A stretch of DNA of 64,000 bases, taken from positions 41,540,001-41,604,000 of the forward strand of contig CM060731.1 of assembly GCA_030704615.1 (NCBI GenBank). The letters run 5' to 3'. Numbering within the stretch: the first letter of the stretch is position 1; each line of letters opens with the position of its first letter. The notes below the pieces were generated by a model that was given only the letters and a program-made list of their open reading frames with translations, was not told the DNA's origin and did not search any database. This stretch comes from Takakia lepidozioides (taxonomy: Eukaryota; Plantae; Bryophyta). Position numbers and translations under genes: made by a program. This document shows positions 1 to 62,450 of this stretch, piece by piece.

Positions 1-9
1 TCTGGATCT

Positions 10-15664: not shown

Positions 15665-16039
15665 GACTGGTGCATGCGCTTGCTGAGCCCTCAGGAGACA
15701 TGCTCATACAGTCCTCCATAGTCCCCTCATCTGGACAACTTCTCATCCGTGCTTCATCCAACGTTCATCCATTACATCCCAAATCCATTCATCCGTGAAT
15801 GTATCATCGTGCATTCGTGCCACTTTGTCGTCATGGAGCCTGTCTGTCTTCGGTCCGATGGAGCGGAGACTGCGTCTTTGCAGTGAAGTTGGCGTCCACG
15901 GAAATAGGCCCACTTGTTCCCACGGTTTTGGGGTCCAGCGCGAAATCTACTCACGCTTTGATTCTACTCACGCTTCGGGAAATCTGCTCACGCATCCAGG
16001 AATCTGCTCATAGGTTCTGCTCACGGCTTTGCTGCCCTC

Positions 16040-16216
16040 TTAGAATAAGACAACACCTAATAAAGTCATATGTTGTTGCCAGCTCATCCTCATGCGCAAG
16101 GTGTAAGTTCATCTAGACTTCATCCTGGCTCCGTCCATCCTTAAATCATCCAGGGCGCATCCCTCCTCCGTTCATCCAAGTCGAAAAAGAAAATGAGAAG
16201 GAATCCTAGCTCCACA
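16040..16216 (-). repeat. LTR-like direct repeat, 3' copy (partner 23807-23983)
   Basis: ttagaataagacaacacctaataaagtcatatg...gctccaca occurs at both positions with a few mismatches. It begins TGTGGAGC on the minus strand. Confidence 0.75.
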
Positions 16217-20200: not shown

Positions 20201-20597
20201 CTGCTCCTATCTGCTCAGCTTGAAGCTTGAGATGAGAATAGTTGGCCATAGAGGTCCCAGCGGCAATAGTAACATGGCTTAGACTCCTTTGTAAGGTTGC
20301 CCCTCACCATTGTGAAGGCACATAAGATTGTTCATGATGTCAATGTTGGACTCTGCACCCTTCATCCAATCCAGTCCCAATAAAATTGTTTACCCGTGGT
20401 GACAATGCAGGTCAGCAAGACAGTTTTCCCACTAATGCGGATAGGCAAGGTGACCAACCCTATGGGTTCATATGCCGTGCCATCAGCTATGGTAACTTCA
20501 AGGCCATGGGCAGGGCTAATTTTTTAATCCAAGAATGCAAACTGTATTAAGTGGAATGGCAGACATGGTATATCTAGTATCAATAACACATGAAAAG

Positions 20598-21229
20598 GAA
20601 AGGTGGCCCACATGACATTGTGTCATCAGTGGGTGGATCCGGTCCCTACTGATGCGCTTATAGGCCTCACAATGCATGAGTTTGAAATCACGAGAAAGAA
20701 TAGCACTTACCATCGTTTTGGGGTTCTTACCATGGTCATCTGGCACCCTCACAGACGACCGGATTCGTTTAAAGTACCCCTCTATTTTTTGTCTCTTTGC
20801 AACTGTTCAATTAGAGCAGGTAAGTCAGATTGGTAAGGGCACCACCTGGTGTAATGCTTAGTGGACTTGCAAATCATGCATGCCACCATGGAAGTCCTGG
20901 CTTCATGACGAATGAAAGGTGGCCCACATGACATTGTGTCATCAGTGGGTGGATCCGGTCCCTACTAATGCACTTATAGGCCTCACACTGCATGAGTTTG
21001 AAATCACGAGAGAGAACAACACTTACCATCGTTTTGGGGTTCTTACCATGGTCATCTGGCACCCTCACAGACGACCGGGTTCGTTTAAAGTACCCCTCTA
21101 TTTTTTGTCTCTTTGCAACTGTTCAATCAGAGCAGGTAAGTCAGATTGGTAAGGACACCACCTGGTGTAATGCTTAGTGGACTTGCAGATCATGCATGCC
21201 ACCACGGAAGTCCTGGCTTCATGACGAAT
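20598..21229. repeat. 316-bp tandem duplication across the gag-protease junction
   Basis: 20598-20913 and 20914-21229 are near-identical, which produces duplicate ORF pairs (20603/20919, 20676/20992). Confidence 0.9.
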
Positions 21230-23253
21230 GCCAGCATTGGTCTTACCTTGAGGCCCAGATTTGGCAGTGACTGTAGAGTTCCAGCCTACCTCGGCTTTGA
21301 AGGCTTGAAGTTCTCCCTGGATTTCATTACGAAAAGATGACAACTCATGCACAATGGAAGGGACCAGATCTTCTGCAATACCTTTCACCCCAAGGTCCCC
21401 ATCAGTATGCTCTACACAGTTACCATCACTAGCCAGATAAGTGTGTTTTGTGTTGGTAACTTTAGACAAGCCTGCCTTGGCAGCTTTGAGACGTAACCTT
21501 TCTTCAATCAATTCCACCATCTCATCTTCAGTGGTGTAAGTCTGTTTTTGCAGAAACACTTTCTCAGCAGGGGGCAAGCCCTTTACAAAACAATGTTTCA
21601 AAATAGCAGGTCTCTCTGAGGCAATTAGAACTGACTTACAGATTGCGGTTCACAAGTCAGTGTAGTATTTCCACACACTGTCGCCATAATGAAATTTTAA
21701 GTCTGGTGTGGTGTAAGCTATGGGCTGTTCTTCACGAAAGAGCTTGCGAGCCAATTCTCTGGCTTCTACCCAAGTAAGATCATTTTTGTCCTTAATATTG
21801 GACTCAAACAGTTGCCTGGCCTCTCCCTTGAGACAGATCTGAAAAAACTTTACTTGGAACCGTGGGAGAACTCCATTCATTTCAGTGCTGATTTCAAAAA
21901 ATTCCAAGAAGGACTCAAAATCCTCCCCTAAGTTGTAGTCAGGGTATTGTTGCTTATGCATTCGCTCCCCATGATCAGTTTTCCGTGGAGTGGTATCTGG
22001 AACTTCCCTTTGTTTCAGCAACATCTTCATAAGCGGGAGGCAATTTGAAATCACCCCCATGGCTTCACACAGCTCGTCCAAATCAAATGTGGGTTGAGGC
22101 ACAGTCGTCGGATCCTTGTGATCTCCGGACGACTCTCCCCTTTCCGTATTATTTCTTTCATTAGTTGTTGTCTCTTCCCTCTCCTCCGCTGCACATTTTT
22201 CCAACTCACTTAGTCCCATCGTCTCTTCTGCTTCTCTCTCTAATATAGATCTTGTAAATACAGGCATGAGAAGAGGAGTACACGGCTACCTGTCCGAAGG
22301 GGCACTGAGCTTCAAATCCCACCTAGACACACAGTGAGATGTGACGAAGCGATGCTTGTGCAGCAGATACATTCCTTCCCCCAAGAAAGCCCATAGTTCC
22401 TCTTCACCCTTGAGCCAAAAAGTCACGCGCACGATGCTGCGTACCACCCTTTCCTTCACCAACAGCATATGGGCAGGATATGCCTTGGCTGCTTCAGCCT
22501 TGTAGAGACCTACTGTTTCACGTCGAAAACACACCCCCGGAAAGATCAACACATCACTGGGACAAAAAGGGAACTCAGAGTCGGGAATACCAGTGATGAG
22601 CTCTTCCCAAGTGGGGTCTCGGGTAGGGGCTGGCGGAACTCGAGGCTTAAATTAGCAAGCAGAATTGATGTACCTCCTTTAACTAGTTCCCACAATCGTA
22701 GAGGGCTCGGCTTGTCAGGAGGCAGGAAGCTCTCAAGCTCTACACCCAATTCTCGACTCACAGAGAATTGTGGAACGCCCAAGACAGCCCAACTAAGTTT
22801 CTCACCACTCTCCAACTGCTCCTTGCAGGCACTAGCAAGGGGAATCTGTAGAGTGACTTCCCTGGAATGAAGCTTGAGGAGAAGGCGTGTGGCGTAGGCT
22901 CCCTGAAGAGACTCGCGAATGCGCCGACTCTGCTCCCTCTGCTCCGCTTTAGTGTGTATGGGCTTGCAAGCTTCTTTGCGTGCAGTTTCCTCAAAGGTCT
23001 TGGCCCAGAACTCTGAGGGCGTGTCCAGCGGGAGCTCATGCCATGGAATAGGTTCTCCCTCCGGATAATCGACAAACACCAGCTGCTCAGGTAACAGGTT
23101 GCATGCAAGCTCACAAATGTAGCAAGATTCCAACGTCTGGGTTTGTCTCAAGCGCGGGACCTCGAATTGATCAAGCTCAAACCAACCACGCTCAGAACTG
23201 GAAGCCATAGTGCTCACTTGCGAAACTCTCAAAACACAGAAAAGCTCGAGCAG

Positions 23254-23258
<5 letters not shown>

Positions 23259-23298
<40 letters not shown>
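23259..23298. repeat. (CT)n microsatellite
   Basis: About 20 CT units. Confidence 0.95.
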
Positions 23299-23302
<4 letters not shown>

Positions 23303-23806
23303 ATGACATACAAGCCGTCATTTTGCCACTACCTCTCCCCTCAATCATGCAGGATCACCCGTACACAATCTACTGCTCTCAGGTGTTTTGTACAAGCCAA
23401 ATTCTCTTTTAACCATTTTTTAGTTACCCCGCATCTCTCGCATTATTCCGGCGCTATGGGTTTAATCCCCTTTCTCTACCGGACTTAATCCTATCTGGGG
23501 AATATAGTCGATAGATGGGCCTGGCAGAGAAGACGGAATCTCACGAAGAGGACGCAACAGAGTCGGACTTCCAAAATGCATTCATCCACACACTCAAGCA
23601 CACCGTTACACCAAGCGTATACTCGCGTAAGACCCAAAAGCCACCACCCTCACTGCCACGGCAGTCGAGCTTAAATAGTATTAGGTCGTAATCTAATCTT
23701 AGTGCCGCGTGACACTTACATATAGGCCAGCCAGATGCCCTTCCAGCATAGCCATAGAAAGAAGCCTGATCACCATATCCATCCTAATCTAATCCTAAAC
23801 TAGCTA

Positions 23807-23983
23807 TTAGAATAAGACAACACCTAATAAAGTCATATGCTGTTGCCAGTTCATCCTCATGCGCAAGGTGTAAGTTCATCCAGACTTCATCCTGGCTCCG
23901 TCCATCCCTAAATCATCCGAGGTGCATCCCTCCTCCGTTCATCCAAGTCGAAAAGGAAGGTGAGAAGGAATCCCAGCTCCACA
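23807..23983 (-). repeat. LTR-like direct repeat, 5' copy (partner 16040-16216)
   Basis: Matches 16040-16216 by direct sequence comparison. Confidence 0.75.
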
Positions 23984-28455: not shown

Positions 28456-29102
28456 ATGGCACTTAGTCCATTTCTCGGGCCTTCCGCAACCGGAAGCTTG
28501 TGGGACTTTGACCCACTGATTGATACTGCATTCTCTCTCTTGGATAACACTCCCCGCCGCTCGCATGCACGGGACGCTCTCTCCATAGTCAACACCAATG
28601 TCGATTGGCTCGAGACACCCGATGCACATATCATCAAGGCTGATCTTCCAGGTATGTCCATCGTACTACTCATCTATTTCCATTAACTGTGCATGACGTT
28701 TATGTATTCGATGCTCACCGGGTGGCCGGTACATGGCTTGCAGGCGTGGGTAGAACGGACATCACAGTTGAAATTGAGCCTCCCCGGACGCTTGTGATCA
28801 GTGGGGAGCGGGTGAAGGAGGAAGTACAGGAGGGTGAAACTTGGCACCGTGCGGAGCGCGTTCGTGGGCGCTTTATGCGAAGGTTTGTCCTACCAGAGGA
28901 TGCGAACTTGGATAAAATCACAGCTGAGGTCGATAATGGCACGCTGAAGATTACAATACCCAAGACTGCCGAGAAGAAGGCAGAGAGCCGCAACATCGAA
29001 ATCAAACAGAGAGAGAGAGGGGAAGCTATCACTGGAGGAGAAAGTGCCGGCGGGGGGAAAGCTGGTGGGGAAGCAAAAACTCCCACTCCACCCCAGAAGT
29101 AG
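28456..29102 (+). CDS. Small heat shock protein (HSP20/alpha-crystallin, cytosolic class I-like); exons 28456-28651 and 28744-29102, 184 aa
   Basis: SLWDFDP, VDWLETPDAHIIKADLPG|VGRTDITVEIE..LVISGER, WHRAERVRGRFMRRFVLPE..NLDKITAEVDNGTLKITIPK, IEI motif. A phase-1 GT..CAG intron of 92 bp restores the frame (196+359=555 nt). An AATAA-rich poly(A) signal lies near 29174. Confidence 0.95.
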
Positions 29103-41423: not shown

Positions 41424-41975
41424 TCATACATGAGAATAGCAAGAGCATGTGTGATTTGCCCAATAACTAGGCCTCAGGAGGGCTTGGGCTTTTGGCTCAG
41501 CCTTGAGACTTTCAAAGTTGGTAAACAGAGGTGCATGCACAATTCCCTTGATATATTTGAAGAGAGCGTCTCTTTGGTGAGAGAACCCTGGATAGTGTAT
41601 CAGATAATGAGTACCGTCTTCAGATTGCCCACACAACGGGCAATTGCACTCTCTCTTTCCTCTCTGCTTCTGTTTGTTGTTCAAAGGTAGGCTTCCTACC
41701 CTGAGTTTAAATTTCAGTCTAGTGCCGAGAGTGGGTAGACCCTTGAGGTCATCCAAGATGTCCTCCCCCATGTCACTGACTGGAAACAAGTTCAGGGAAG
41801 TCTTCTGCCTAACTTCATTTTCATCAGACAATCTGATGGCAACAGACATGGCTTTGGAAACTACAGCCTCTAAGTCAGATTTATCAACCCATATTGCAGA
41901 TCCGTACTCCAAGGCAGGTCTAATAATGCGACAAAGCATGGTTTTCTTAACCTCAGAGTTGACCCTTCTGCAGAA
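41424..41975 (-). mobile_element. LINE ORF2 3' fragment (internally deleted copy of the 49120-49913/61029-61340 family)
   Basis: IIRPALEYGSAIW; CPLCGQSED..H.L (C-terminal Zn motif). Near-identical to 49150-49591, joined to the 49904/61029 segment through TTATC microhomology. Confidence 0.85.
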
Positions 41976-44900
41976 AAAGTTAAAAAGAGAGATGGAAGAT
42001 ATTCATGTCATGTCAAGACATGGACAAGACCCACTAGGGTCATTGTCAATTAAAGACATAAACAGCCCAAAACAGGGCACCATCTAACATTTCCATTCTT
42101 GTCATAGCTTCCCATGAATTGACATCACCCATCAGTCATGATAAACAGGGTGGGAGGGCGGGGTTTGTTCATGTAGGGGATGCAAGCTCTTGAACACCCG
42201 AGATCCGGCCATCTTGGCCAATGAATCATTTGTTCATGTGTGGGACAAGATAAGATATTGCTGCCCCTGTGCAGGCTGCAAGGCCTCTTGGTTCAGCTTG
42301 CACACATACCTTACCAACAGGTCATGTCTTGAAGGAGCACAAAAATGTTGAGGTCATGCAAAGGGCAAGGTACCATGGTCCAGCCTGCCCTATTACCATT
42401 TCAAGACACGTTTTCACACATACATCTTGGACGTGACCCACAGGTTGCAACATCTTACCTTTTCAGCCATTAGTTATGGCAGGTCATGCATCAGCCAAGG
42501 CATAAGGACCAGCCTGCAATTTGTCAGAATCACAATATGCCACGGAGCAATCCTACTTGGGCATGATGAAATAAATTCCATATCATTTGTATTCTCCCCG
42601 AGACATGTTATCATACAAGGTGTCAAGGGAATGTGAATTCAGCCAGTCAAATTGCAGGTTCAAGACTTGTACATACAAGCAACTTGAACAACCGAGATCC
42701 AACCTCTTTTGCATATAAAAAACCAGATTGCAGGTCATAGGCTTGATGTCATGACAAAGCCAAAACTATAGGTAGGATCCCATTGCAGCTTACCATCCTC
42801 ATCCTTCAAGAGTTCCATGCTAAAGCATGCAAATAACACCTCACTATGATCCACTGCACATCATAAACAGGCCCGAACAGGAGCAGGTCGGTGTCTTATC
42901 AGGCTGCTGCCATAACATTCAAGGCCACCATGTCCATAGAGACCCAAAACCGCCAGAAACATACCACCTAAAACCAGATCCTCTTTGGCCAAAAACACTT
43001 ACAACCTAGCTCAATAATCCACAAGCCCTGCTGTCAAAGATCAAAAAGTAGGGTATGGTTTGTATGCAAGCCTTAGGAAACAGGCCAGACAGGCCGAGCT
43101 GCGCATCGACGGCAGAACGACAAAGGCCAAAACATAGGGCCAAGCATTAGATGGGGCCCTGGAGTTGAATGTGAGGGAGCCGGCTCAGCCAGCGTGGACC
43201 TCCCGCCACCCCACGCCCACCCCCGCCTCCATCGCCCCGCGTGGCACGCCTCCCGCGCCTCATGTTCCCGCTGCCAGGACATGAGACGTGCCCTCTCCCG
43301 CATCCCCCATCCCTCCTCCCATCCTGCCCTCATGCATGGCATTGCCCTCATCCCCCATGCATGCCTTCATCCTCGCCATGCTACATGGTATCCCAATGCC
43401 CTCTTTCAAAAATCGTGTCGGTTGCTTAGCTGCACCTGCTCGTTTTCAGAGACCACTCCAAAATCTCCACACTGCAGACATAAGCTGGTTTGGCATCTAT
43501 GTACATTTGGACATGGTATGTCCTCGTTGTGGAGAGTCCAATGGAGCCCATGTTGATGGTACTGTAACCCCACTTATCTTCCACAGGTGATATGGCAAAT
43601 GTTGCCACAAAGAGATTTCACAATGTTGTTGAAAGCTCACTAGCACCCCTTCGTAAAGGAACTTGTCAAAATGTTGATGCTGCGGATTTTCGGGCACAAA
43701 AGTCTACCTTGGAGCACGGAGCAGAGTTGGCATGAGTTCTTTAAGGATCCTTCACGATGGAGGGACAACCGTAATCGCAAGGTGTGGCTTTCTCTTAATG
43801 TATGAGGTGAAGAAGTTTGGCTGAACGAAATGTGGTGTCATGGAACGCGATGTTCGTAGGATATGCACAGCACGGGTGTGGGATGGAGGCTTTGGAGACC
43901 TACGAGCAAATGATGCACGGATGGGCTTCAGAAGGACATAATGCATAGCTACACCACATGACAATGTCTGATGATTATGACTGTTTGGATTGTTTATCAC
44001 TAGAAGCATTCGTGTCATTTACCACTGGGGTAACGACTCATTTTGAGTCGTAAAAGTCAAAAAACAGGGATCGACTGGAAGTTACAACAGACCAGTTACA
44101 ACAGACGTGGTAGTTGGGTTGGACATCCAATGATTGGAGTGGTAAAGGACGTAGACGCGCGAACAACTGCTCAACGATTAATGCAATTAATGCTGAAGAA
44201 CCACGTGGCGTAACCAGGCGGGCCGCCCGTGTGTCTGATGTTTTGAGCTGACTTTGACTTTTCCCTCCGGATGAGTGGACTGACTCATCCGGGGCGCGGT
44301 GACACATGGACGCGGACGTGGATGCGGACATGGATGCCGATGTGGCGGCGCCGCGACGAGCGGTAATGCCACCGCGTGGCCACGGGCTCAAGACGCCACA
44401 TCGCAGTCGGCCACATAACTTGGAGTGCTGCATGTCACGTGGCAAGCCACTAGCGAAGTCGACTGCACAACTGCCGGCAGACGAATCCACGGGGACCACG
44501 TGGAGAGTGTGTGGGTCGACGCGTGGCGTCGTCCCCCGCAAATGGCAGTGAGGGGTACGACTGCTAGTGGAAAGACGCAGAGTGCTTGTGCCATCTCGGG
44601 ACTGTTTTGGCCAACTCCGCTGCCACTATGCTAGTTGGTTGCACTACAGTAGGAAAGCACTACAAATGAGCACTTGTAGTGGTTTTGTGTGAGTTGTCCA
44701 ACTGACTTGCATTCTAAGCTGAAAATATGGTTCTGATGCATTCTACTGGTTTTAGTGGTTCACCCATATGCAGGGGGAATTGAGAGCAATGATACTGGGC
44801 GACACTCAGAACACAGACCACGATGCATGCACAACATCACGTTAATGAACCAAATAGACGAGGCAACAGGGAGACCAAAGACCATCACACATACACATAG

Positions 44901-49119: not shown

Positions 49120-49913
49120 CTCTAGAAATCCCTTCACACAAGCATCAATCTATTGTGTGTGATTTGCCCAAAAACTAGGCCTCAGGAGGGCCTGGGCTTT
49201 TGGCTCAGCCTCGAGTCTTTCAAAGTTGGTAAACAGGGGTACAGGCACAATTCCCTTGATAGAATTGAAGAGCGTCTCTTTGGTGAGAGAACCCCGGACA
49301 GCGTATCAGAAAATGAATATTGTCTTCAGATTGCCCACACAACGGACAATTGCACTCTCCCTTTCCGATCTGCTTCTGTTTGCTGTTCAAAGGTAGGCTT
49401 CTTGCCCTGAGTTTAAATTTCAGTCTAGTGCCGAGAGTGGGTGGACCCTTTAGGTCATCCAAGATGTCCACCCCCATGTCACTGACTGGAAACAAGTTCA
49501 GGGAAGTTCTCTGCCTAACTTCATTTTCATCAGACAATCTCATGGCAACAGACATGGCTTCAGACACTACAGCCTCTAAGGCAGATTTATCCAGCAGGGT
49601 CAAGACTTGCGGATCCAGGTCCAGGTCCTTGAGAATCTTTTCTACTCTCTTCTGCAGGACTTAGTCTGTTTGACAGGCGGTCCTGTTTTCCAAGATTTAG
49701 AGTCGATCAACTTAGGATATCTGGTGTTGGGCATATGTTGCAGCTGACCCCACCATCTGACCTTGAATTCATCTCGTCGGGAGCTTAAGGATGGGATGCC
49801 AAACTCACCCCCGAACAGCCACATTGGCTGTTTTCTCCATGCTAACATACACTCCTTAAGCACCCCCACTTGAATGGATTCTAGAGACTTAGCCTGGTTG
49901 GAGTTATCAACCC
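49120..49913 (-). mobile_element. LINE ORF2 3' part (left flank of the gypsy insertion)
   Basis: GEFGIPSL..RR...K.RWW..L..MP..RYPK; CPLCGQSED..HFL..CP. Continues at 61029 after the insertion. Confidence 0.85.
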
Positions 49914-50229
49914 TGTCAAGTTATTTTACCACTAGTGTGAAACTAGCTAGGAAATAGCTAGCTTTTACATATTGACATTTGGGATTGGCCCAAGTGTCAA
50001 TCCAGGGGTCAAGGCAGATTTAGGCCCTGGAGTGGTTATCTTCACGGCAAGCGCGGAGGCTCATCTTTCTCGAGTTGAGCCTCACCGCGCCTAGCTATGG
50101 CGCCGTAGTGTGGATTCCCCATGGCGTGGGGTGCACTTGGCTTGACTTGTATTTGAGTGATGAGGTTATATATGCATGAGTTTATGCTTCAGCTTTGTGA
50201 GCTCGTGCTTGTATTCTTCTTCTTTATCA
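49914..50229 (+). repeat. Terminal repeat A1 (316 bp)
   Basis: Identical by eye to A2 (60523-60839) except a 1-nt indel (ggaggc/ggaaggc). Confidence 0.95.
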
Positions 50230-50245
50230 CTCGAGAAAGATGAGC
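50229..50245 (+). promoter_or_regulatory. Candidate self-priming primer-binding site
   Basis: ACTCGAGAAAGATGAGC, at the end of A1, is the exact reverse complement of 50059-50075 inside A1. There is no TGG-type tRNA PBS. Confidence 0.65.
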
Positions 50246-51734
50246 TCGTATCTGTGAGTGCCAGATACGAGTTAGTTGTAGCACTTGGTTTTTGCTTGAG
50301 AATGAGAGAAACCAAGTTGTTATGCAAGGAGCACCGTGGAGCTCTTGGTTGTTAGAAGCGGAGGCGATGTGGGTTACGAGGTGGTAGACCTTGGCATTCG
50401 ATCTTCAGCTTCAGAGATGAAAGCACCATGCTGCAGGTAATTCCAGAGCACCTTGATGGTTTCAGATTGTGTACATGCATGAGCAAGCACGATTGGGAAG
50501 AGGACCAGTCAAGAGCAGGTTATAGTGGCTTTGGTGGCAAAGCTGAGAACTGGACTTGGGAATGCGAGCTTTCATTGTGTGAAGGATTGCAAGACCAAGC
50601 GAAAGGGCTGATTTGGCTTGGGGCAAATCAGTGCACTTTGTGGAGTATGGTGAGATTGGGTTTCAATCTCGAGCTTCAGCATTGAGAGGGCTCTTGTCAT
50701 GGCAAGAGCAGGGCTGGAACAGGAGCTAAGAGGTGCGGCAAGGCCATGGAATGTGCACCTAGGGTTTCAGAGCTTGGAAGAAGAGCTCTTGCACACAAGA
50801 GAAGTGTCTTGTGGCTGGAAATGTAAGCCTTAGGGTTTCAGGAGCTTGGCAAAGGCTGTGGAGTGCTTAGTCTTGTCTTAGAGAGCATCAAGGAGCCAAG
50901 GAGCCAAGATAGGGGGCTGATATCTCTTGTGTGAAGAGGTTGCATGTGGAGCATGTATTCAGCTCATTGAAGCTTCCATCTTCAAGCTTGGAGGGCAAGC
51001 AAGGAAGAGGGAAGGGCTGACTTCCCTTATGTGAGGGCAATGCATGTGTGGAGCATGCTATCAGCCTGGTGAAGGCTTGCACTTTCAGGTGTGGGAGTGC
51101 AAGAAAGGAAGGAAGGGGCTGGTTTCCCTGTAGGGCATGTGGAGCATGCTTTCAGCCTGCTGAAGCTTGTATTTTCAGGTTTGTGGGTGCAAGAAATGAA
51201 GCAAAGGAGCTGATTCTCTTATGGTGAGAGTGGGGCATGTGTGGAGCATGCCTTCAGCCCATTGAGGCTCTTGTTTTCAAGCTTTAGAGAGCTAGAACGG
51301 AAGGTCTAGGGCTGGTTTCCACTTGGAGTGAAAGAAAAGCACTTGTAGGGCCTATGTGAGTTGGGGTTTCAACTTCAAGCTTGAAGGGAGCGCAACTCTT
51401 GAAGCAGCAGGTGTAGGGGCTGGAATAGGCTCTAAGACAGATGCTATGGCCAAGGAGAGTGCTTGAATGAGTGCTCACAAGGGCTGGGAACCAGCAGGGC
51501 TTGGTTGTTTGCCATTGAGTTTAGTGGCGTGTTTGGGAGGCTAAGTGAGAAAGAAGGCTTGGTTTGTGGCAACCACCTCATGGCTTAGGGCTACTATGGT
51601 GGTGTGTGGGAGCCGAAAGAGCAAGAATACCTTGCTGATTTCCTCACACCATAGCTCGGTGGAAAGAAGCCTAGAGTCCAAGAGACACAAACCCTAGCTT
51701 GGCGTGGCTAAACCCCTTGGAGAAATGGCTAACT

Positions 51735-52170
51735 GCCAGAGATGGGCTGTGGGGCTGTGACAGGCTGTGAGGCTGTGTGTGGGGCTGTGAAACGGGCTGT
51801 GTGTGACAGGAACTGTGAGGCTGTGCTGTGTGTGACGGGCCTGTGTGTGTGTTGTGACTGTGTGTGTGACACAGGACGGCTGTGTGTGACGGGCTGTGAC
51901 AACCTGTGACAGGCTGTGACGGGCTGTGAGGCTGTGTGTGGCCTGTGTGTGGAGTGGGGCTGTGAGGGGCTGTGACAGGAACCTGTGGAGGCCCCCACCC
52001 TGTGAGGGGTGACAGGCAAATGTGGAAAGAAAATGTGCCTGAACCTGTGACAGGCTGTGTGACACGGCTCAACTGTGACGGCTGTGGAGCTGTGTGGGCC
52101 TGTGCTGGTCTGTGGTGGCCCGTGTTGACCTGTGGACGGCCTGTGCTGACTCGTGGAGGCACTGGTGGAC
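51735..52170. repeat. GGCTGTGTGTGAC-type low-complexity tandem repeat in the element leader
   Basis: Dozens of ctgtg/gtgac units. Confidence 0.85.
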
Positions 52171-53027
52171 TGCCTAAGGACTGGCATGTGGTCTGGAAGG
52201 CCGAATTTTGAAGCTCGTGGAGGGCGGTTTGAGGAGTATCTTCATGATATTCCCATGGTCATGCAAGTGAGGGAAGAGAGGAGAGGAAGAGTGTTGGGAT
52301 GAGGGCATGCTGGGGTTAGGCATTGCTTTAGCTTCTCTTCCTCGTAGTTTCCACCCTCTCATTAGGCCAAGACCTTTCCGTAGGTGGAGGCAAGAGTCAG
52401 TCCGGGTTTGGGCTGGGGTGTCCTTGCAGGAGCAACACCGTGGAGTTGTTTTTGGTGTGGGGGAGTTGTCGTTCTGATTTCTTGTGTTTGGATCCCCTCC
52501 ATACCTGCATGCTTGACTGTGCGCCATGCTAGTTTTGTGTGGGCGCTTGTTTTTATAGGTGATTGGTCCGGATTTGATCACCGGCCAGTCCTAGAGCATG
52601 CTGTCGATGGTGAGGCTGGGGTGATGACCAGCCAGACCATCATTGTTTCTCCTGTGGTGAGGTTGGAGGTGATGACCAGCCAACCATAGGAGTGCTTGCG
52701 GTGGATGCAGGTACAGGTGTAGGCTATGTTAGGAACTTAGTATTCCAAACCATAAGCCGCAACAGGTTCTCTACCCGGTTACCTTGTGGAGAGGGGGTTA
52801 GGGACATGTTCATGACCGGTTGAGTGTCAACACGGAGGTGCCACTAGTTGCTGGGGACAGTGCCGGTTCGAGCACTAGCGATACTAGTGGGTACACGAGA
52901 CGAGGTGTGCGGTTTTAGGCCACCTTCACCTCCTGTGTCTTCTACGGAAGGTTCTGATTCGGATTGTGAATCAGGAGGACTCATACCGGCGGTGCAAGTT
53001 GTTTCTTTGCCATTGTTGTGGGACACA

Positions 53028-54250
53028 ATGGAGGAGATGTATGGAGCTACCAAGGGGCCACGAAGGTACTCTGGGGCGGTGGGCACCATCGAGTTGGATG
53101 ATTTTATCCAAGAGTTTGATAGTTGGTGTGATTTGCAGCAAATGCGCAATCCACAACTATTTACGCCTTTCATGGCATGGAAGGGGCTGTTTCAGCCCTT
53201 GAGGGCCGCCTATGGATGATTACCATGAGTTCAGGCGGGGGCATGAGGTTGAGATCGAGGAGTGGAGGATGTACTGGTCACCCGACTATGTCTCCATCAC
53301 TAGGGGCACTAGAGCCACGAGGGCAGTGGCTACACCTGCCGCTGCACCGGCAGCTTCAGCAAGTAGCAGTGGGACTGGTGGTACAGTAGCTACGACGTCC
53401 ACCCAAGCCACTACCGCACCAGCACTAGCACCCGTGCCTGCCTTCAACCCTGTTGTGGAGTTCTTCGAAGAGTTGAGAGGGAACTACCAAGGGGTGAGGA
53501 CAGAGAAGTTGCGGAGCTTGCAAGAGTTCCAACGGAAGCCGACCGAGAGCTTGAGGGAGGCTTTCACTCGCATGAGGCGCTTGATAAATGTAACCCAAGG
53601 GTTTACGGAAGCTCAGGCAGTCCAATTCTGGTATGGGATATTGGACAAGGAGCTGAGGAGAAGGGTGCGGGATGCAACTCTCCTACAAGCGGCCCAACCC
53701 ACCTTAGCAAATGTGTTTTTGCTGGCAGAGCGGATAGAGCTCAACATGGTGGAGGAACGAGTGGTCATGGTGGGATTTGCTAAGGAGACACCACGGGGTA
53801 GTGGTGCTCCTAGCCAACCACTACCTCAACGTGCTCAAGGCAACAAGGGGGCTCAGGTGAAGCTCAGGGAAGGGCAGAGAGGACCTCAGATGCAGGGTCT
53901 CTCCCTTCATTTGCTGGCCAACAACGGGCGGATGTGGTGTGCTGGACATGTGGAGGACCCCATGTCAAGAAGGATTGCCAGAGGGAGGCAAAGGGCCGGC
54001 ACATGCACAGCCTGCACAGTTGCAGTGTGGGCATTGTGGCAAGCACGGGCATGGAGAGGCCCAGTGTTATGGTTTGCATCCTGAGTTGCGCCCAGGCCAG
54101 TTCCAAGGGAACAATGGTGGCCGGGGCGAGGTGGAGCAGCCCAGAGAGGACGAGGTGGCCAGCCACGAGGCCAAGGGCAAGCTCAACATGGCCAAGGACG
54201 CGGAGGTCAGGGTGTTGACCAAGGCATGGCCAACCGGCTTCAGCAGCTAG
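53028..54250 (+). CDS. gag-like ORF (frameshifted) with two CCHC knuckles
   Basis: LDDFIQEFDSW; LQEFQRKPTESLREAFTRM...AVQFWYGILDKELR (retrotransposon gag core); CWTCGGPHVKKDC and CGHCGKHGHGEAQC. Confidence 0.8.
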
Positions 54251-54989
54251 AGCAGAGGCTCGCTGCCATGGCTACAGCTCAGGTGGTACCGGCTCTAAGG
54301 CCGGATGGTCCACCTCCTGCTCCTGAGGGAGGAGATATGGGAGGCATGGGATTCATGTGTGGAGCAGCACTACCACTAGTGCAGGTGGAGTCTGCTGCAG
54401 CCGTGACTCGAGGAGCAGCACGAGTTCCTGAGCCACGAGGTGCAGAGGTGGAGTTGGATCCACAGCGTGGGGAGGCAAGCCGTCAGGCTAGGCTTCCTCA
54501 GTCATTCACATTGGCGGAGACAGTGTCGACGCCATCCATGGCACCTAGTTCTCGCCCGACTGTTACCGAGGCGGAGGTTACTATGCCATTGGGGAGAGCT
54601 ACACGGGTAGCACCACTACCTAGTGTTGCCAAGGCTACGGCAGCTAGTGTGCTGCTAGGAGCGGCCACATCTGTGAGGCTCCATTGTTTCGGCTACCATG
54701 ATTGCGACGCCGGGGGTAAGACCAGCTGAGGTGTTCAGGCTGGCAGCTACACTCTGTGAGAGTGGGGAGGTTACTTCATCTTCTGCGGAGATAGTGGGAG
54801 GTGTAGTGCCGGAGGGATCCTCGGATTTGAGGGTCAAGACTGCCACGGCGCGCCATGGCAAGCTGCAGCTGCCAGGTTGATGGAGCTGCCAGCTAGGCCA
54901 GCCATTGAGCGCGCCATGGTGACACCTGGAGTTGTCATGTTAGACAACCAGGATGGCATTTTCTGTTTGAGTGGACCGGCAGGCAAGAG

Positions 54990-55320
54990 GTACCGGCCAC
55001 TGCGGTCTTGTTGGACTCGGGAGCTCAGCCATGATGCTGGGCAGAGCTGCTATTGCAGGCTTGGGCCTCACGGAGGCGGATATGGAGCCTTGTCCTTTCC
55101 AGATACAGACGTCTCTGGGAGGATCGGAGCAGGCTCGGGGCATGACACGGCGTGAGTTGGCTATCAGACTACGGCCGGATCACCCTACAGATGGCTCAGT
55201 GATGCGAGCCAAGGCCATTGTGACAGACGCGTCTCATACGATGTCCTGGTTGGTGGGGCAGTGTTGTACCCCATGGCTTCACCCTGGATTTTTGGGAGGA
55301 GTCAGCTTCCTATAGGCCTG
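54990..55320 (+). CDS. Aspartic protease domain
   Basis: VLLDSGAQP, with DSG at 55014-55022; downstream YDVLVG-like motif. Confidence 0.75.
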
Positions 55321-55719
55321 CATGGCAGTCAGGGGAGGGCCGGCGTGTGCAGCTCCCTGTGACGTTCATAGGAGGAGTTGCGGTTGCCCAGCGAGGCAAG
55401 ATGCCGACACTAGCAGCATTCACAGCGCAGTGAGTTGGCCTAGAGAGTTGCTTGAGGGCAATGCTCATTCAGAGGATGTACCACCTCCGGGAGAGCAGGA
55501 TGACATGTATGGTATGGCGGAGTTGCCTACCATGGTTGCTCAGACTCCATTGTGGGGCACGAGCAAGGATTTGCAGCGGGATGCTGATCGACGGGTGCAA
55601 CAAGCCTGGGTGGAGGCTTTTGTACCGTCAGGAGAGGAGGAGAGTGCGGGGATTGCACCAGGACCACCTCAATTGTCTCCATTGGACACCACACCTATTG
55701 TGTGGCAGTATCCGGATGA

Positions 55720-56680
55720 AGGCATTTGTCTTCTGGACTTGTTTGCGGGATCAGCACCGGATTGGCTGCTGTGTTACAGGCAGGTGTACGAGTTCGGCGT
55801 TACCTGTATGTGGAGAGGGATGAGACTGCACGACGCGTTTCACTTCGCCATGTTGCTCAGTTGGTGCAGCGGTACCCTGAGTTGTTGTCGGTGTCTGCAA
55901 TTCGTGGATATCAGCAGGCCTTGCCAGCAGACATTTCGTTGCTGGGGGCGCAGGATTTGGAGCGGGTTGGCTCCATTGATCTGGTAGTGGCAGGTTGGCC
56001 CTGCCAAGGGCATTCATCAGCCGGGCATGGCAATGGATTGCGAGACTCGAGGTCGGGTCTGTTTTGGGAGATGGTGCGGGTTTTGCGCCACTTGCAGCTT
56101 CATCAAGCTGTATCTCCAGCATACATCTTGGAGAATGTGCCACTGATGGGCGATTCTCGGGCCAGGGGATGGCCAGTGTGCATCAAGTCCGGTCGTGGCT
56201 TGGGTCAGCAGTGTTTGCTAGATGCAGCTACAGTGGGGTCACGGGCTCATCGTCCACGGCTATGGTGGACTAACTTGATGCCACCCGCACTGCTCAAGCG
56301 TGCATTTGATGGGGTGCAGCGGCCAGCACATCTCACAGTGGATAGCATTCTGGACACAGGGAGGCAGTCTCAGCGTGTGAGACACGATGACCGTTCGCCT
56401 TTGGCAGTGGTCAACAAGGTGGGTCAACCACGAGCAGCATTACCTACACTGCTCAGCTTCCCAGGATCGCATGCTTTCCGGGATAGTGGACCTGGCCTCC
56501 TGTGGGATGCTCAGTTGCAGCAGTTAGTGGAGCCTAATGCTGACGAGCGTGAGCGGGCAATGGGTTTTACCACTGGTACCACGGCGGTGTCGTCTCTTTC
56601 TGAGGCATCACGTCGTCAAGTGTTGGGGCAAGCAATGGATCTCAATTGCTTGACCTGGATTATCAGCTTGGCTCTGGCTG
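55720..56680 (+). CDS. C5 cytosine DNA methyltransferase domain (DNMT3-like, non-permuted motif order) within pol
   Basis: Motif I LLDLFAG(I)STG (across a 1-nt frameshift near 55750); II YVE.D; III ADI; IV DLVVAGWPCQG (catalytic Cys codon at 56002); SGLFWE; VI YILENV; VIII RAHRPRLWWTN; IX ERERAMGF..GTT; X RRQVLGQAMD. Confidence 0.92.
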
Positions 56681-57099
56681 AGCAACGCAGAGTGCGGAGT
56701 ACACTTCCCTCAATGGTCTCTCTGCCTACCGAGACGGTACAGGCAGTGAGTGGGGGCGAGCATGTGAGGACCACGGGGTGCATGCATCCATGGCACACGT
56801 GGGAGGTGCTCGAGGTTCAGAGGGAGTTGGCAGCCAAGGCGGCTGTGATGATGAGGTTGGGGATTCTTCTCGGGTTGAGGAGGTCCTCAAGGATGAGATG
56901 ATGGGGCAGGATGAGGCCTTGTCATTGACTGAGCAGGTAGGAGTACTGCTCAAGAGGTTGCAGCATAGCAACCACGGGACGCGTCCTCTACCTCTAAGCC
57001 CACTGGACTTAAGGTTGTAGTTACGGAGGACAATTGGGAGCCTGACATTGGACCCATTGTCACCGGAGGAGAGAGACGACGTATACGGCGGTTCCTGAG

Positions 57100-59900
57100 G
57101 GCTTACAGGAATTGCTTTGCCTTCAGTTTGAAGGACTTGGGAGCACTGAAGGGTCAAGAGATCCGTATTGAGTTGGCCACTGACACGCCAATCTTTCGGA
57201 GACCCTATAGATACAGTGACATGGAGAGGTCTTTGATTCAGATGAGGACTCAAGATCTCTGGGAGGCAGGTTTGGTGGAGCTCTCTGGTGGAGAGTATGC
57301 TTCAGCCACAGTGATGCCAGCCAAGAAGGATGTCTATGGCAATTGGACGAGAGACGTATGTGCGGTGATTACCGGCCTGTAAATCGTCAGACCAAGTCCG
57401 ATAAGTATGCCATGCCAACACCAGAGGAGATCTTTGATGCCATCGGGCATGCTAAGGCCTTTAGCACTTTGGATTTACGATCCGGATATCACCAGTTGCC
57501 AATCAAGGAGGCGGACAAGCAGAAGACGACATTCTGGGGGATCAATGAGCACGGCAAGGATTGCCTATATCAGTGGCGGTTCTTACCATTTGGGCTTAAG
57601 AATGCTCCTGCAGAGTTTCAGAGTCATGGATAGGATTCTAGCAGGGTGGACTTTGCTCGGTGCTACATAGATGACATCATCATCTTTAGTGTTACGATGG
57701 AGGAGCATGAGAGACACCTTCAGGTGGTATTGGAGCGCTTGAGAGCGCACGGATTGAAGTTGCATCCGGGGAAGTGCAAGTTTTTCCACAACCAGATTGA
57801 GTATCTGGGTCATGATATATCCTGGAGGATTGGGGGTACAGCAGACTAAGGTAGAGGCCATTGCACAAATTCCACGCCCCACGGATGTGAGCCGAGTTCG
57901 AGCTTTCATGGGGTTGGCAAACTATTATAGACGGTTTGTCAAGGGATTTAGTACCATTGCAAAGGCTCTAACCAAGCTGACCAAGGTGGACCAGGAGTGG
58001 CAGTGGGAAGATGAGCAGGAACGAGCTTTTCAAGAGCTCAAGGCGAGGTTGACCTCGGCGCCTATCTGAGACGACCTATCAGGGGGCGTCCCTTTCAGCT
58101 GCATACGGATTGGAGCATGCTGGGGCTTGGAGCGGTGCTCACACAGGTGGATGATGAGGGAAGAGAGTTCGTAGTGGCTTACGCTAGCCGCTCGAAACGC
58201 TGCAGAGGCTAAGTACAGCTCATATGAGGGAGAGTGCTTAGCTGCAGTGTGGGCCGTGGCACACTTCAGGTGCTATCTATACGGCAATCTTTTCACCCTT
58301 GTCACGGATCACCAGCCACTCAAGTGGTTGATGGAGTCAGACAAGCTTACGGGGAAGCTTGCACGGTGGGCACTTATACTCCAGGAGTATGACTTTCAGG
58401 TTGTGCATCGACCGGGTTTGGTCAATCGGGATGCGGATGGATTGAGTCGCAATCCATGCATGAGCCAGCAGGATGACACTGGAGCTCGGTGGCATGGTGA
58501 GACGGACGAGGAGATGGTGCCGGGATGGCACGCATCTGCATTTTTGTGTATCTTGGCATCGGGAGGTCAGATTGGACCTACAACAGGGATGACTGTAGAC
58601 GGAGTGTCTGAGGACCCTGAGGCTAGTGATGAGCTAGGTGGTGCCAGAGATATACATGAGGATTCGGCTGTGTTGGACTACCTCCGCACGGGAGACACGG
58701 CAGCCACTGTGACTGCCAGGGAGGGATCGGATCCTGCAACGAGCCAAGAGGTTCAAGTGGGAGGGGATACACCTACTTCGAGTGTGGGAGGATGGTCGGG
58801 TGAGGATTGTGCCTCACCCCACACAGCGTGCACGGTTAGTGCGGCATGCCCATGAGGAGTTGGGGCATTTTTGGAGTGCGACGCACTCACAGTTTACTGC
58901 AGGGCAGTATTGGTGGTGGTATGCATACAGAGGTGCAACAGTTCGTGGCTAGGTGCATGGTGTGTGACAGGGTGCGTGCTTCATTCAACGCCCCTACACC
59001 ACAGTTGCATCCTTTACCAATCATGGGATTGGGCTACAGGTGGAGTCTTGACTTCGCAGGACCGTTGCCACTGACTATGCGCCACCACAGATGTGTTGGT
59101 GATGGTGGAGCACTTCTCCAAGTGGATTGAGTTGGTTCCATTGCCTGACAAGGCTAGTGAGGGGGCTGCGTATGCATTCTTGGATCGTGTGCTTAGCCGA
59201 TTTGGTGCTCCAGCTGAGGTACTCACGGACCAAGGGAGAGAGTTCTTGGGGGAGTTTCAGGCTTTGTGTGATAAAGCCTTGATAGACCACCACCACTTCT
59301 CGGGATCATCCTGAGGCCGATGGCTTGGCAGAGAGAGTTGTTCAGACGGTGAAGAGGGGTTTGCGCAAGTATGGCTTGCAGAAGGGACACCTAGGAGATT
59401 GGGATCTTCAGGTTCCTTGGTTAGCCATGGGCTACAGGTTCAGCAAACAAGCATCACTTGCCTCCTTCTCACCATATTTCCTTCTCTTTTGGCCGAGAGC
59501 CGGATTTGCCTGCAGCCATTCGTAGGGACACTGCTCAAGTCCTTAACCTTGACGATCCGGACGTGTGGGTACGTGCATGTGATCAGCGTGCAGAGTTGTT
59601 CAAGAAAGTCATGCCCATGGCTTTTGAGAACCTTGCCATTGCACACACCGTGATACGTTGAGGTATGCCACTATACGTGGTGGAGGATATCGTCCTGGGG
59701 TTCGGAGGTTTAGCCCTGGTGACTATGTTTATTTGCAGCAGACTGCTCCTACGACTCTGGATGTTACTGCAGGGCGTGTTATTCTGAGGGTTCGAGAGGT
59801 GTTGCCCTCAGGGGTCCTGATCTTGGAGGGTCGGGATGGCATGACTTGGAAGGACCATGTGCGTAATTGTGCGCATGTCACCTTCCCAATGTCGATGGCA
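57100..59900 (+). CDS. RT, RNase H and DDE integrase of the DNMT-carrying element (several 1-nt frameshifts)
   Basis: [36 protein letters not shown] (57664), LHTDWS..GLGAVLTQ, VAYASR, TDHQPL, HEELGHFG..C..C, WSLDFAGP, LTDQGREF, GLAER. Confidence 0.92.
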
Positions 59901-59941
59901 GAGTTGACCCAAACTTGGCAGTGGTACCTGCAGGTTTGAGG

Positions 59942-60084
59942 TGCATGCTCTGTGGGTCTGCCAAAGGGGCAGCCACCATGCTGGTGTGTGATCGATGCTC
60001 AAGGGTTGGCATATGGGATGCTTGACACCACCTCTTGAGAAGGTTCCTGACGGAGATTGGTTGTGTCCACACTGCTTGGGATAG
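59942..60084 (+). CDS. PHD finger (C4HC3) at the integrase C-terminus
   Basis: CMLCGSAKGAATMLVCDRCSR(G)WHMGCLTPPLEKVPDGDWLCPHCLG*, with one 1-nt frameshift near 60004. Confidence 0.88.
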
Positions 60085-60329
60085 TGGCAGTGGACATGAC
60101 TGGAGGCAGCTAACAAGACATGGGAGGCCAAGCTCATAGGAGTCAATACATGAGATCCCAAGCTCAAGTTCACAGGTTGCAAGACGGCGACTAACGATGG
60201 GGCAACTCTTGCACCCGGCCTCTTGATCTATCGAGTTTGAGTGTAGTAGGGATAGTGGTGGAGGACTTAGTGAGGCTATGGTCACTATCACATCTTGTGG
60301 CTACCTGGACTTAGAGGGACCTAAGCACC

Positions 60330-60343
60330 AGCTAGGGGGGCGA
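60330..60343 (+). promoter_or_regulatory. Polypurine tract
   Basis: agctaggggggcga lies just before TGTGTGG, the start of repeat B1. Confidence 0.7.
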
Positions 60344-60344
60344 T

Positions 60345-60520
60345 TGTGTGGACTAGTGACTGCCATAGTGGGCAGCATAGTGGCAGCCTAGTGACTGACT
60401 AGTTGTAGCCTAGTGGTTGGACTAGTGGTGGACTAGTGGTATACTAGTGTGTGGTGTGCACATGTGTTGTGTGGTTTTGGACAGCGATGTAGTTGTGTAG
60501 CGATATGTATGCGCACGACA
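60345..60520 (+). repeat. Terminal repeat B1 (176 bp)
   Basis: Matches B2 (60841-61028), which carries one extra 12-bp GTGGCTGGACTA unit. Rich in ACTAGT palindromes. Confidence 0.95.
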
Positions 60521-60522
60521 GC

Positions 60523-60839
60523 TGTCAAGTTATTTTACCACTAGTGTGAAACTAGCTAGGAAATAGCTAGCTTTTACATATTGACATTTGGGATTGGCCC
60601 AAGTGTCAATCCAGGGGTCAAGGCAGATTTAGGCCCTGGAGTGGTTATCTTCACGGCAAGCGCGGAAGGCTCATCTTTCTCGAGTTGAGCCTCACCGCGC
60701 CTAGCTATGGCGCCGTAGTGTGGATTCCCCATGGCGTGGGGTGCACTTGGCTTGACTTGTATTTGAGTGATGAGGTTATATATGCATGAGTTTATGCTTC
60801 AGCTTTGTGAGCTCGTGCTTGTATTCTTCTTCTTTATCA
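60523..60839 (+). repeat. Repeat A2 (317 bp)
   Basis: Copy of 49914-50229. Confidence 0.95.
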
Positions 60840-60840
60840 T

Positions 60841-61028
60841 TGTGTGGACTAGTGACTGCCATAGTGGGCAGCATAGTGGCAGCCTAGTGACTGACTAGTT
60901 GTAGCCTAGTGGTTGGACTAGTGGCTGGACTAGTGGTGGACTAGTGGTATACTAGTGTGTGGTGTGCACATGTGTTGTGTGGTTTTGGACAGCGATGTAG
61001 TTGTGTAGCGATATGTATGCGCACGACA
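60841..61028 (+). repeat. Terminal repeat B2 (188 bp)
   Basis: Copy of 60345-60520; ends GACA, followed by the TSD. Confidence 0.95.
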
Positions 61029-61340
61029 ACCCATATAGCAGATCCGTACTCCAAGGCAGGTCTAATAACGCGACAAAGCATGGTTTTCTTAACCTCGGAG
61101 ATGACCCCTCTGCAGTGGAAAAATTTAGTGAGCCCCAGAGCTTTGCCCTTGCCAGTTTGAACAACTTTCCGTATATGTGCATCCCAATTACAATTGGAGG
61201 AAAACTCAATGCCTAGGTAAGTGTAGGAAGGGAGGACCGGGATCTCTTGGCTACCCCACTGCCACTTAAGATCACTTCCTCCCTCTCCTCTGTCGTTGAT
61301 TGCTACCACTGCACATTTCTGCCTAACTTCATTTTCTGCC
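61029..61340 (-). mobile_element. LINE ORF2 segment (right flank, continuing the LINE interrupted at 49913)
   Basis: YTYLGIEF...NW..HI...; VKKTMLCRVIRPALEYGSAIWV. Confidence 0.88.
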
Positions 61341-61344
61341 CAAT

Positions 61345-62450
61345 CACATCTCCTCTACGCTGATGATGTTGCCCTTTTGGCACAATCCCGGTCTTTCTGC
61401 AACGCCATCTCTAAATTTGGAACAGTTCTGCAAAGACTATGGGATGCAAGTCATCTTAGCAAGACCAAGATCATGGTCTTCAATGGCCAGGCTGATCGTA
61501 GATTCATCTTCAACCAGCAGTAAATTGAGATTGTCAAATCACACCGGTACCTAGGTCTGGTTATCCACTCCCCCAAGTTTCACTTTGCAGCCACTGCCTT
61601 GGACAGATTGACTAAAGGTAAGGCGGCCTCCGTCCGCCTTCACGCCAAATGCAAGCAAACATGTGCGGCATCCCCCGACCAAAAAGTGTCTGTTTGACAC
61701 CGTCGTCAGCCCTGCTACCATCTATGGTTGTGAGTTCTGGGCACCTGGTGTCCCTATCTCCTGGTGGAAAAAGATTTTGGAACCATTACAGTCATCTTTT
61801 CTCCAAGCAATGCTTGGCGCCAGGAGCACAACTCCCTCTCAGATCCTAGGTGCAGAGTTCGCATGTGTACCATTGCAATCCGAGGCACAGTTCAGGCTTA
61901 CAATCTGTGAGGAATAGATTGCAGGCCCTTCCACCCAAAGGGCTAGTGGCAAGGCCCTCACAACATCTATGAGGCTCAAAGCTGCAGGTTTTCGGGAACT
62001 CCTGGTATGCTCGAGTGGACAGTTTATTTCAACGTAACCGACTTTCTACTACTTTCCTATTACCAATGAACCCAGATGAGGTGGACATCACATCCACACA
62101 TGACCGCAACAGACTCATTCGGAGAGAGCTTGTGGAATTACATGTGAGAGAAACTTGGATGCTACCCAATCACAACAAAGCTCCACTTCTATCGAGAGAC
62201 ATTCTTGGTGCTCCGCGATGATAGAATCTTGAGACCAAATTACCTTTCAGCACCCCTTAGCTCCTTCCCTCTTGAGGGCATTGGGGCAGTTCAGGGTGGG
62301 TTCCCACAACCTACGGATAGAGACTGGCAGATGGGAAAACTGCAACGGGAGGACCGCCTATGTCCAGCTTGCATAGGGCGCAGCAAGGAAATTGAAACTG
62401 AAGAACACTTCTTTCTTCTACTGCCCTCTATACTACGAGATCCGATTGAA
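61345..62450 (+). mobile_element. Second LINE family RT 3' fragment
   Basis: LLYADDVALLA; SKTKIMVFN; YLG; PATIYGCEFW; R.DRLCPAC....IETEEHF.L. Confidence 0.85.

Follow-up and report, generated by a model that had tools for sequence, protein, structure and literature searches.

Retrotransposons that bear a DNA methyltransferase (DNMT) domain were described by de Mendoza et al. in 2018, who reported KnitGypsy-Dnmt3 from Klebsormidium nitens and SymbioDIRS-Dnmt3 from Symbiodinium (PMC5890265). In the sections of that paper devoted to KnitGypsy-Dnmt3, the element has the Gypsy domain set and an intron-less, non-permuted DNMT3-like domain under purifying selection, placed in the same open reading frame (ORF) as the reverse transcriptase (RT) and RNase H, and a legend gives its repeats as "the same as a DIRS"; self-priming, a polypurine tract (PPT), a palindrome, the length of the target-site duplication (TSD), and a PHD finger are not mentioned in those sections (PMC5890265). 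The Klebsormidium domain produced no methylation in yeast, a result called inconclusive by its authors, and the SymbioDIRS-Dnmt3 domain methylates CG in the same host; SymbioDIRS-Dnmt3 also has split A/B repeats, and methylation of its cDNA was proposed (PMC5890265). In the passages that touch on the subject, a 2019 opinion paper holds that land plants such as tracheophytes lack transposons encoding a methylase (PMC6338049), and later papers cite the family for "streptophytes" without naming land plants.

The window, i.e., the whole 64,000-nucleotide stretch of DNA that was analysed, contains an 11.1-kb Ty3/Gypsy element (49914-61028) with a 4-bp TSD and the domain order gag, zinc knuckles, protease, DNMT, RT, RNase H, integrase, and PHD finger, all on the forward strand. 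The gag with its zinc knuckles (53028-54130) is broken by indels in this copy and scored under the cut-off against PF03732 (E 0.0015), and it is 55-83% identical to Marchantia Mp_4g09160. It is followed by an aspartic protease (54975-55330, with an LLDSGA motif near 55005), the DNMT (55720-56691), and an RT with the YIDD motif plus RNase H (57035-58480; PF00078 E 5e-11, PF17917 E 5e-22). A DDE integrase with an HHCC finger (58740-59890) was located by tblastn with P0202, P0015, and P0193, which match rve and H2C2, and a PHD finger at its C-terminus (59942-60075) matched Marchantia Mp_7g09570 at 64-77%. The gag-PR-RT-RH-IN order, the DDE integrase, the PPT, and the TSD place the element in Ty3/Gypsy, and the presence of a DDE integrase and a protease excludes it from the tyrosine-recombinase group (DIRS/PAT/Ngaro). 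Likewise, SymbioDIRS-Dnmt3 shares the DNMT3-like domain and the split repeats but relies on a DIRS tyrosine recombinase, in contrast to the DDE integrase, 4-bp TSD, protease, and PHD finger found here. By sequence, the element belongs to the KnitGypsy-Dnmt3 lineage, of which it represents a variant with the DNMT outside the RT-bearing ORF. The K. nitens protein KFL_009030040, which we take to be KnitGypsy-Dnmt3 from its host and domains, has the same PR-DNMT-RT-RH-IN order and is 45% identical in the DNMT.

The first-pass annotation had described a young, TSD-bounded copy, and both points held. The TSD reads ACCC on the left (49910-49913, inside a LINE remnant) and on the right (61029-61032), and contigs spanning the empty insertion site were found in 4 of 4 runs. 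The terminal repeats are near-identical and differ only by indels. A frameshift-aware alignment to intact relatives indicated about 32 apparent single-base frameshifts but not one premature stop across roughly 2,230 codons, with some of the 32, those in poorly conserved linkers, possibly being alignment noise. Nine of the 11 element indels best supported against sibling contigs fell at runs of at least three equal bases, compared with a background of 20%. Since the frameshifts come without nonsense stops, the repeats are near-identical, and the indels sit at homopolymer-type runs, this copy is likely a young insertion carrying assembly errors.

The LINE remnant interrupted by the element is of a high-copy type, lies on the minus strand (49123-49913 and 61029-61354), and encodes a C-terminal CxxC-type finger; a second copy is situated at 41424-42087. 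Elsewhere in the window, a fragment of an HSP20 small heat-shock gene (28644-29102) had nearest database matches of only 36-46% identity. On the minus strand, a further element of Gypsy type (16037-23983; RT/RH 18068-20206, integrase 16730-17527) has 180-bp direct repeats that are 93% alike and no DNMT that we noted, and served as the outgroup of the RT tree. Pieces at 4682-8712 and/or 2533-3492 presumably resemble a CACTA-type transposase, and CCCTAAA-like telomere-type repeats occur among the pieces in these two stretches. Within the 11.1-kb element itself, a strong G skew runs along its whole length, and the 5' leader of about 2.8 kb (50230-53027) includes degenerate repeats (50945-51303) and a CTGTG-rich tract (about 51740-52160). 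Joints with GT..AG ends (52266-52690/52711) were present in DNA runs and thus exist as DNA.

The DNMT domain carries motifs I, IV, VI, VIII, IX, and X in linear, non-permuted order: FAG (55742-55750), PCQ (55999-56007), ENV (56131-56139), RAHRPR (56242-56259), ERAMGF (56551-56568), and LG (56623-56628). When searched with the Pfam profile, the frame at 55720-56898 matched PF00145 above the curated cut-off (E 2.1e-13; 50.8 bits against 22). The best sequence matches in the PDB were DNMT3A (E 1.5e-7), then DNMT3B/3C and HhaI, with entry 4onj at 0.009. An AlphaFold model built on an 18-row alignment reached a pLDDT of 87.5, and its top Foldseek match was DNMT3A (TM 0.71), all 34 matches listed being DNMT3A/B/C. 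By sequence and by modelled fold, the domain is thus DNMT3-like, as the motif reading had proposed, and nearer to DNMT3 than to bacterial methyltransferases or DRM. The motif order stands, but motif I is out of frame with the others, the break falling near 55745, and two frameshifts that compensate each other (about 56165-56217) leave some 16 codons after ENV off-frame in this copy.

The annotation had further envisaged that the domain might evolve neutrally with loss of its catalytic residues, which was not observed. The catalytic Cys is kept in 206 and the Glu in 210 of the 212 full-length homologues, and Cys, Glu, and both Arg are each retained in more than 95% of them. As an additional observation, motif IV reads ECQ instead of PCQ in 25 of 81 loci, with the catalytic Cys retained. 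Among 22 pairs tried for dN/dS, many of them saturated, five pairs from the better-preserved lineages gave 0.09-0.17 for the DNMT, similar to their protease (0.08-0.24) and above their RT (0.04-0.08), and one algal-type pair gave 0.03. In decayed moss-like pairs, the DNMT value (0.41-0.78) exceeded that of the RT (0.27-0.49) in seven of seven. It is very improbable that the domain has ceased to be a DNA methyltransferase and persists as a nucleic-acid binder, an RNA methylase, or a tolerated passenger. The inactivity of the Klebsormidium domain in yeast (PMC5890265) speaks for such a loss, as does motif VIII, which has decayed in old moss-like copies and whose Arg is kept in only 30 of the 47 covered loci with the DNMT before the RT; the retained SAM-binding and catalytic residues, a dN/dS of about 0.1 in intact lineages, and the DNMT3A-like fold speak against it.

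A search of representative proteins with the domain returned 226 representatives at E ≤ 1e-30. The named matches included the pair Marchantia polymorpha and Calypogeia fissa (up to 73% identity), four species of Sphagnum, Klebsormidium nitens, Spirogloea muscicola, Closterium, Scenedesmus, and Monoraphidium, with vascular plants absent from the names among the matches listed. In 222 DNMT-matching proteins, RNase H lay upstream of the DNMT in 61, gag/protease before or RT after it was found in 51, and 110 showed no neighbouring domain with the probes used. Contigs matching an 11.5-kb stretch, which includes about 390 bp of the flanking LINE, numbered 109,431 of 2,790,647 and 112,058 of 3,038,600 in two runs of a single sample, possibly the source of the window; the depth is not a copy number. 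In runs X1, X3, and X5, coverage of the DNMT bins was like that of the gag and RT bins; run X12, whose RNA nature is a guess, gave thin cover of the DNMT core, which counts neither for nor against the domain. The element family is highly abundant, and a DNMT is no rarity within it, which differs from the 33 DNMT genes given for K. nitens in the part of the paper that treats them (PMC5890265).

These data bear directly on the suspicion that this copy alone captured a host or bacterial methyltransferase, or that the assembly is chimeric, as the many indels of the window copy might suggest. With 226 representatives, retrotransposon domains in the long matches scanned, and even coverage of the DNMT bins, this explanation is rejected as having next to no probability, the DNMT recurring across the family in confirmed and intact loci. 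Absence of the domain from other copies, the other outcome foreseen by the annotation, is likewise not what was seen; the domain is a family trait across bryophytes and green algae. A viral origin found only weak and mostly partial matches (E ≥ 7e-13), and a prokaryotic origin found three strong matches among 13 loci from prokaryotic genomes, which were whole retroelements on short contigs of metagenome-assembled genomes (MAGs). These three loci (L140 at 1-8209, L141, and L142) are complete DNMT-bearing Gypsy elements from three prokaryotic MAGs, likely eukaryotic contamination of the bins.

The elements fall into two arrangements, since chlorophyte-type relatives carry the DNMT between RNase H and integrase. 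Trees of RT and DNMT were quick IQ-TREE runs (LG+G4, SH-aLRT only), with 24 of 58 RH-DNMT-IN rows and, in the DNMT tree, element-borne domains only. The arrangements separated in both the RT tree (SH-aLRT 98) and the DNMT tree (94), and the window and K. nitens KFL_009030040 fell on the DNMT-before-RT side in both; the window copy has a long branch in the RT tree, owing to its off-frame stretches. The DNMT of the window grouped (99) with Calypogeia, Marchantia, Sphagnum, and locus L001, which supports the land-plant-like host supposed at first reading; by sequence, the host is likely a land plant of liverwort or moss type. The topology fits one capture of the DNMT, its co-inheritance with the RT, and one relocation, in trees that are unrooted as to direction.

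The annotation had placed the methyltransferase inside the pol region; it instead ends the Gag-protease ORF and is outside the RT-bearing one. Between the two, at 56966-56974 on the forward strand, we identified TAG CAA CCA, a putative readthrough site separating ORF1 (Gag-PR-DNMT) from ORF2, in which the stop is followed by CARYYA in frame with the downstream RT ORF, the arrangement expected of readthrough of the tobacco mosaic virus (TMV) type. UAG-CAR-YYA is the TMV readthrough signal, with about 10% efficiency in vivo, and UAA is likewise read through, according to the relevant passages of PMC2754532. The sites seen here resemble it in their stop context and differ in standing between the DNMT and RT of a Gypsy element and in a last base that is often C or T. 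The loci obtained were the best 80 of 138 confirmed. Among 35 elements with both the DNMT end and the RT start, 32 (the window plus 31 of 34 related loci) begin the RT frame at a TAG or TAA that has CAR-YY behind it, compared with a background of 108 in 9,383 TAA/TAG triplets (1.2%) in the loci examined. The strict CARYYA occurs in six of the 35, the window included, and the other 26 of the 32 signals are CARYYC/T, most of them from one moss-like family. Four lineages share the signal, although the peptides on either side of it differ between them and do not align. It is absent from three elements, L024 (TAG TAG CCA), L025 (TAC CAA at the site), and L038; the TAC of L025 encodes Tyr, the residue that TMV inserts on readthrough, which may be chance.

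The layout is best seen in the intact locus L028, where a 1369-aa Gag-PR-DNMT ORF, a single TAG, and a 1047-aa RT-RH-IN-PHD ORF share one frame, and the same layout and stop signal were present in L140, which was obtained later. Across the set, the DNMT end and the RT start share a frame in only 25 of 35 elements, and because of indels between the DNMT and the TAG, frame continuity is not directly demonstrable in the window copy. The Marchantia and Calypogeia proteins stop about 75 residues past the DNMT, as predicted by a stop after Gag-PR-DNMT. The statement in the corresponding section of PMC5890265 that a single ORF encodes DNMT, RT, and RNase H is true for the Klebsormidium and Closterium proteins and untrue for the window lineage, where the conserved stop divides the DNMT from the RT. 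In Klebsormidium, Closterium, and others, the DNMT is fused to the RT without a stop; Gag-level dosage is therefore not essential. A CAR-YY stop at the start of the RT-bearing ORF was found in none of 18 chlorophyte-type loci. In these, the gag-pol junctions vary among in-frame TAG ACA GC or TGA CT stops, overlapping ORFs, and a single ORF (for example, L067 at 1397-1405, L070 at 2796-2804, L071, and L075 at 5105-5113), with the DNMT downstream at the Pol level.

Given that the DNMT precedes the in-frame TAR-CAR-YY stop, it would be made at the Gag level, and by analogy with TMV the stop is probably leaky, which predicts about ten times as much DNMT as RT and integrase. Suppression of a stop codon is also known for the env of SIRE1. 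It is improbable, by comparison, that translation of the RT ORF depends on splicing or re-initiation, a route with a precedent in Ogre-type elements, and that CAR-YY is incidental, in which case the DNMT would still be at the Gag level. A Met does lie between the stop and the RT core in 29 of 35 elements, most moss-like copies reading CAA CCC ATG, but the window, L001, L019, L028, and L058 have the signal without such a Met; moreover, a single in-frame CAR-YY stop is kept across lineages with non-aligning flanks, and an intron needs no frame.

The first-pass annotation did not notice that the termini of the element are split direct repeats. The layout is A1-internal-PPT-B1-GC-A2-B2, a permuted LTR pair, rather than one full LTR at each end; the plain-LTR reading was rejected, A1 standing without B. 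A1 (49914-50229) starts with TGTCA, ends with CA, and differs from A2 (60523-60839) by no substitution and one 1-nt indel; transcription may start near 50059 within A1. The PPT (60334-60343) is situated directly before B1 (60344-60520, a putative U3 start with the end CACGACA), and its end, GGGGGGCGA, is shared by six of the seven moss-like loci shown, L019 having one substitution. B2 (60840-61028) abuts A2 bluntly in what may be a 2-LTR circle junction, and the element ends in GACA. No tRNA-type primer site was found after A1, and no tRNA gene within the window. Instead, the putative primer-binding site (50229-50245), which directly follows A1 and lacks the tRNA-type TGG start, has a 17-nt complement at 50059-50075, the predicted RNA 5' end and self-primer; none of 300 random internal positions was as good, and the fold had a z of -6.8. 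Such a complement was significant in eight of 12 5' ends, and its sequence differs between the window and the moss-like copies (two lineages). Priming by analogy fits the self-priming of Tf1/Tcn1-type elements, which also lack a tRNA primer site and have an LTR stretch complementary to the sequence after the LTR; Tcn1, as presented in the pertinent part of PMC6317226, is a chromovirus with ordinary LTRs, in contrast to the PHD finger and permuted termini found here.

Taken with the PPT before B1, the self-priming site implies that the ordinary LTR would be B-GC-A, and the A2|B2 joint then brings a primer-defined right end bluntly against a PPT-defined left end (window and L018; one base off in L032). 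Inside this LTR, at the B1-GC-A2 junction (60517-60526), lies the palindrome GACAGCTGTC, a candidate internal integrase attachment site, and all integrated ends seen fall on its halves (GACA-GC-TGTC). Thirteen exact copies were counted in 633,723 bases of related loci (about 0.6 expected), all of them 3' of the PHD, and the palindrome is conserved in both domain arrangements (DNMT before RT and RH-DNMT-IN); only 15 of 38 loci showed it downstream of the PHD, many of the loci being single forms or ending early. L032 has the double form with TSD AAGG; the single form, A-internal-B, is seen in L019 (TSD TACA) and, with one mismatch, in L025; L034 is rearranged.

The simplest reading of these sequences is that 2-LTR and 1-LTR circles would have been integrated through the internal attachment site; the single forms could alternatively stem from recombination between B1 and B2. 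A symmetric 2-LTR circle should also give the reverse permutation, but none of 12 5' ends (10 distinct flanks) showed it, which the circle model leaves unexplained so far. The nearest precedent is the foamy-virus integrase, a DDE integrase that cuts a palindrome in circular cDNA, as set out in the relevant sections of PMC1180852. In foamy virus, those sections place the palindrome at the LTR-LTR joint and keep the linear ends as normal attachment sites (PMC1180852), whereas the palindrome of the window lineage is internal to the LTR and coincides with each of the integrated ends seen.

Our main reading, to which we assign a probability of roughly 0.6 for the whole chain including leaky stop, self-priming, and circle integration, is that the DNMT, produced at the Gag level, enters the particle and methylates the cDNA of the element, or its circle, before integration. 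Ribosomes would pass the stop in about one of ten passages, taking the TMV figure in the section of PMC2754532 that reports it, giving a roughly tenfold excess of Gag-PR-DNMT over RT-RH-IN-PHD. The RNA would prime itself and yield an ordinary linear cDNA with LTR = B-GC-A, the ends of which would be joined into a circle, and the integrase would open the circle at GACA-GC-TGTC, so that a 2-LTR circle would give A-internal-B-GC-A-B and a 1-LTR circle A-internal-B. The abundant DNMT would methylate the cDNA, so the new copy may arrive in chromatin already marked, and the PHD finger likely guides the integrase to a histone state. Methylation of cDNA by a packaged enzyme, which the first reading had put forward, thus remains plausible.

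Fusion to Gag favours packaging into particles, and this point, together with the retention of the domain within the polyprotein in both positions and the existence of intact loci without a stand-alone DNMT ORF, counts against action in trans, i.e., a Gag-level DNMT working in the nucleus on integrated copies or host chromatin, either as self-limitation or as interference with silencing. We regard this alternative, the main rival, as unlikely; the predicted excess of DNMT over RT is more than one cDNA would need, the weaker constraint relative to RT in all seven moss-like pairs fits a shared product, and self-limitation is raised in the discussion of the subject in PMC5890265. Returning to methylation before integration, a wider historical scenario is offered more tentatively, with the odds somewhat against it: an old Gypsy clade of the green lineage, from chlorophytes to bryophytes, would have abandoned linear-end integration for a DDE integrase that inserts circles via the LTR palindrome, and a DNMT3 captured once would have moved from a Pol slot (RH-DNMT-IN) to the Gag slot before the leaky stop, where the particle-loaded methyltransferase would pre-mark the circle and possibly choose the palindrome cut.

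As to whether the family had been described, about which the first-pass annotation was unsure, the kind is known since 2018 as KnitGypsy-Dnmt3, and the land-plant variant was not found in the literature. Specifically, the literature covered, for the most part open-access main texts, gave no description of copies in land plants, of the readthrough site or the palindrome, or of the second position of the domain. Gene annotations list copies of these elements as host "DNA (cytosine-5)-methyltransferase" or as hypothetical genes, and any LTR finder that requires two full terminal LTRs would be expected to mis-delimit or miss them. Why retrotransposons carry their own silencing enzyme has been an open question since 2018, in hosts that are hard to work with genetically. 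The clade is abundant in the land-plant-type genome of the window and present in Sphagnum and in Marchantia polymorpha, the latter with a 1278-aa Gag-PR-DNMT protein (Mp_4g09160), which makes the question testable in a genetic model. The putatively leaky stop predicts the dosage of the enzyme, and the arrangement of the termini predicts that a DDE integrase inserts circles.
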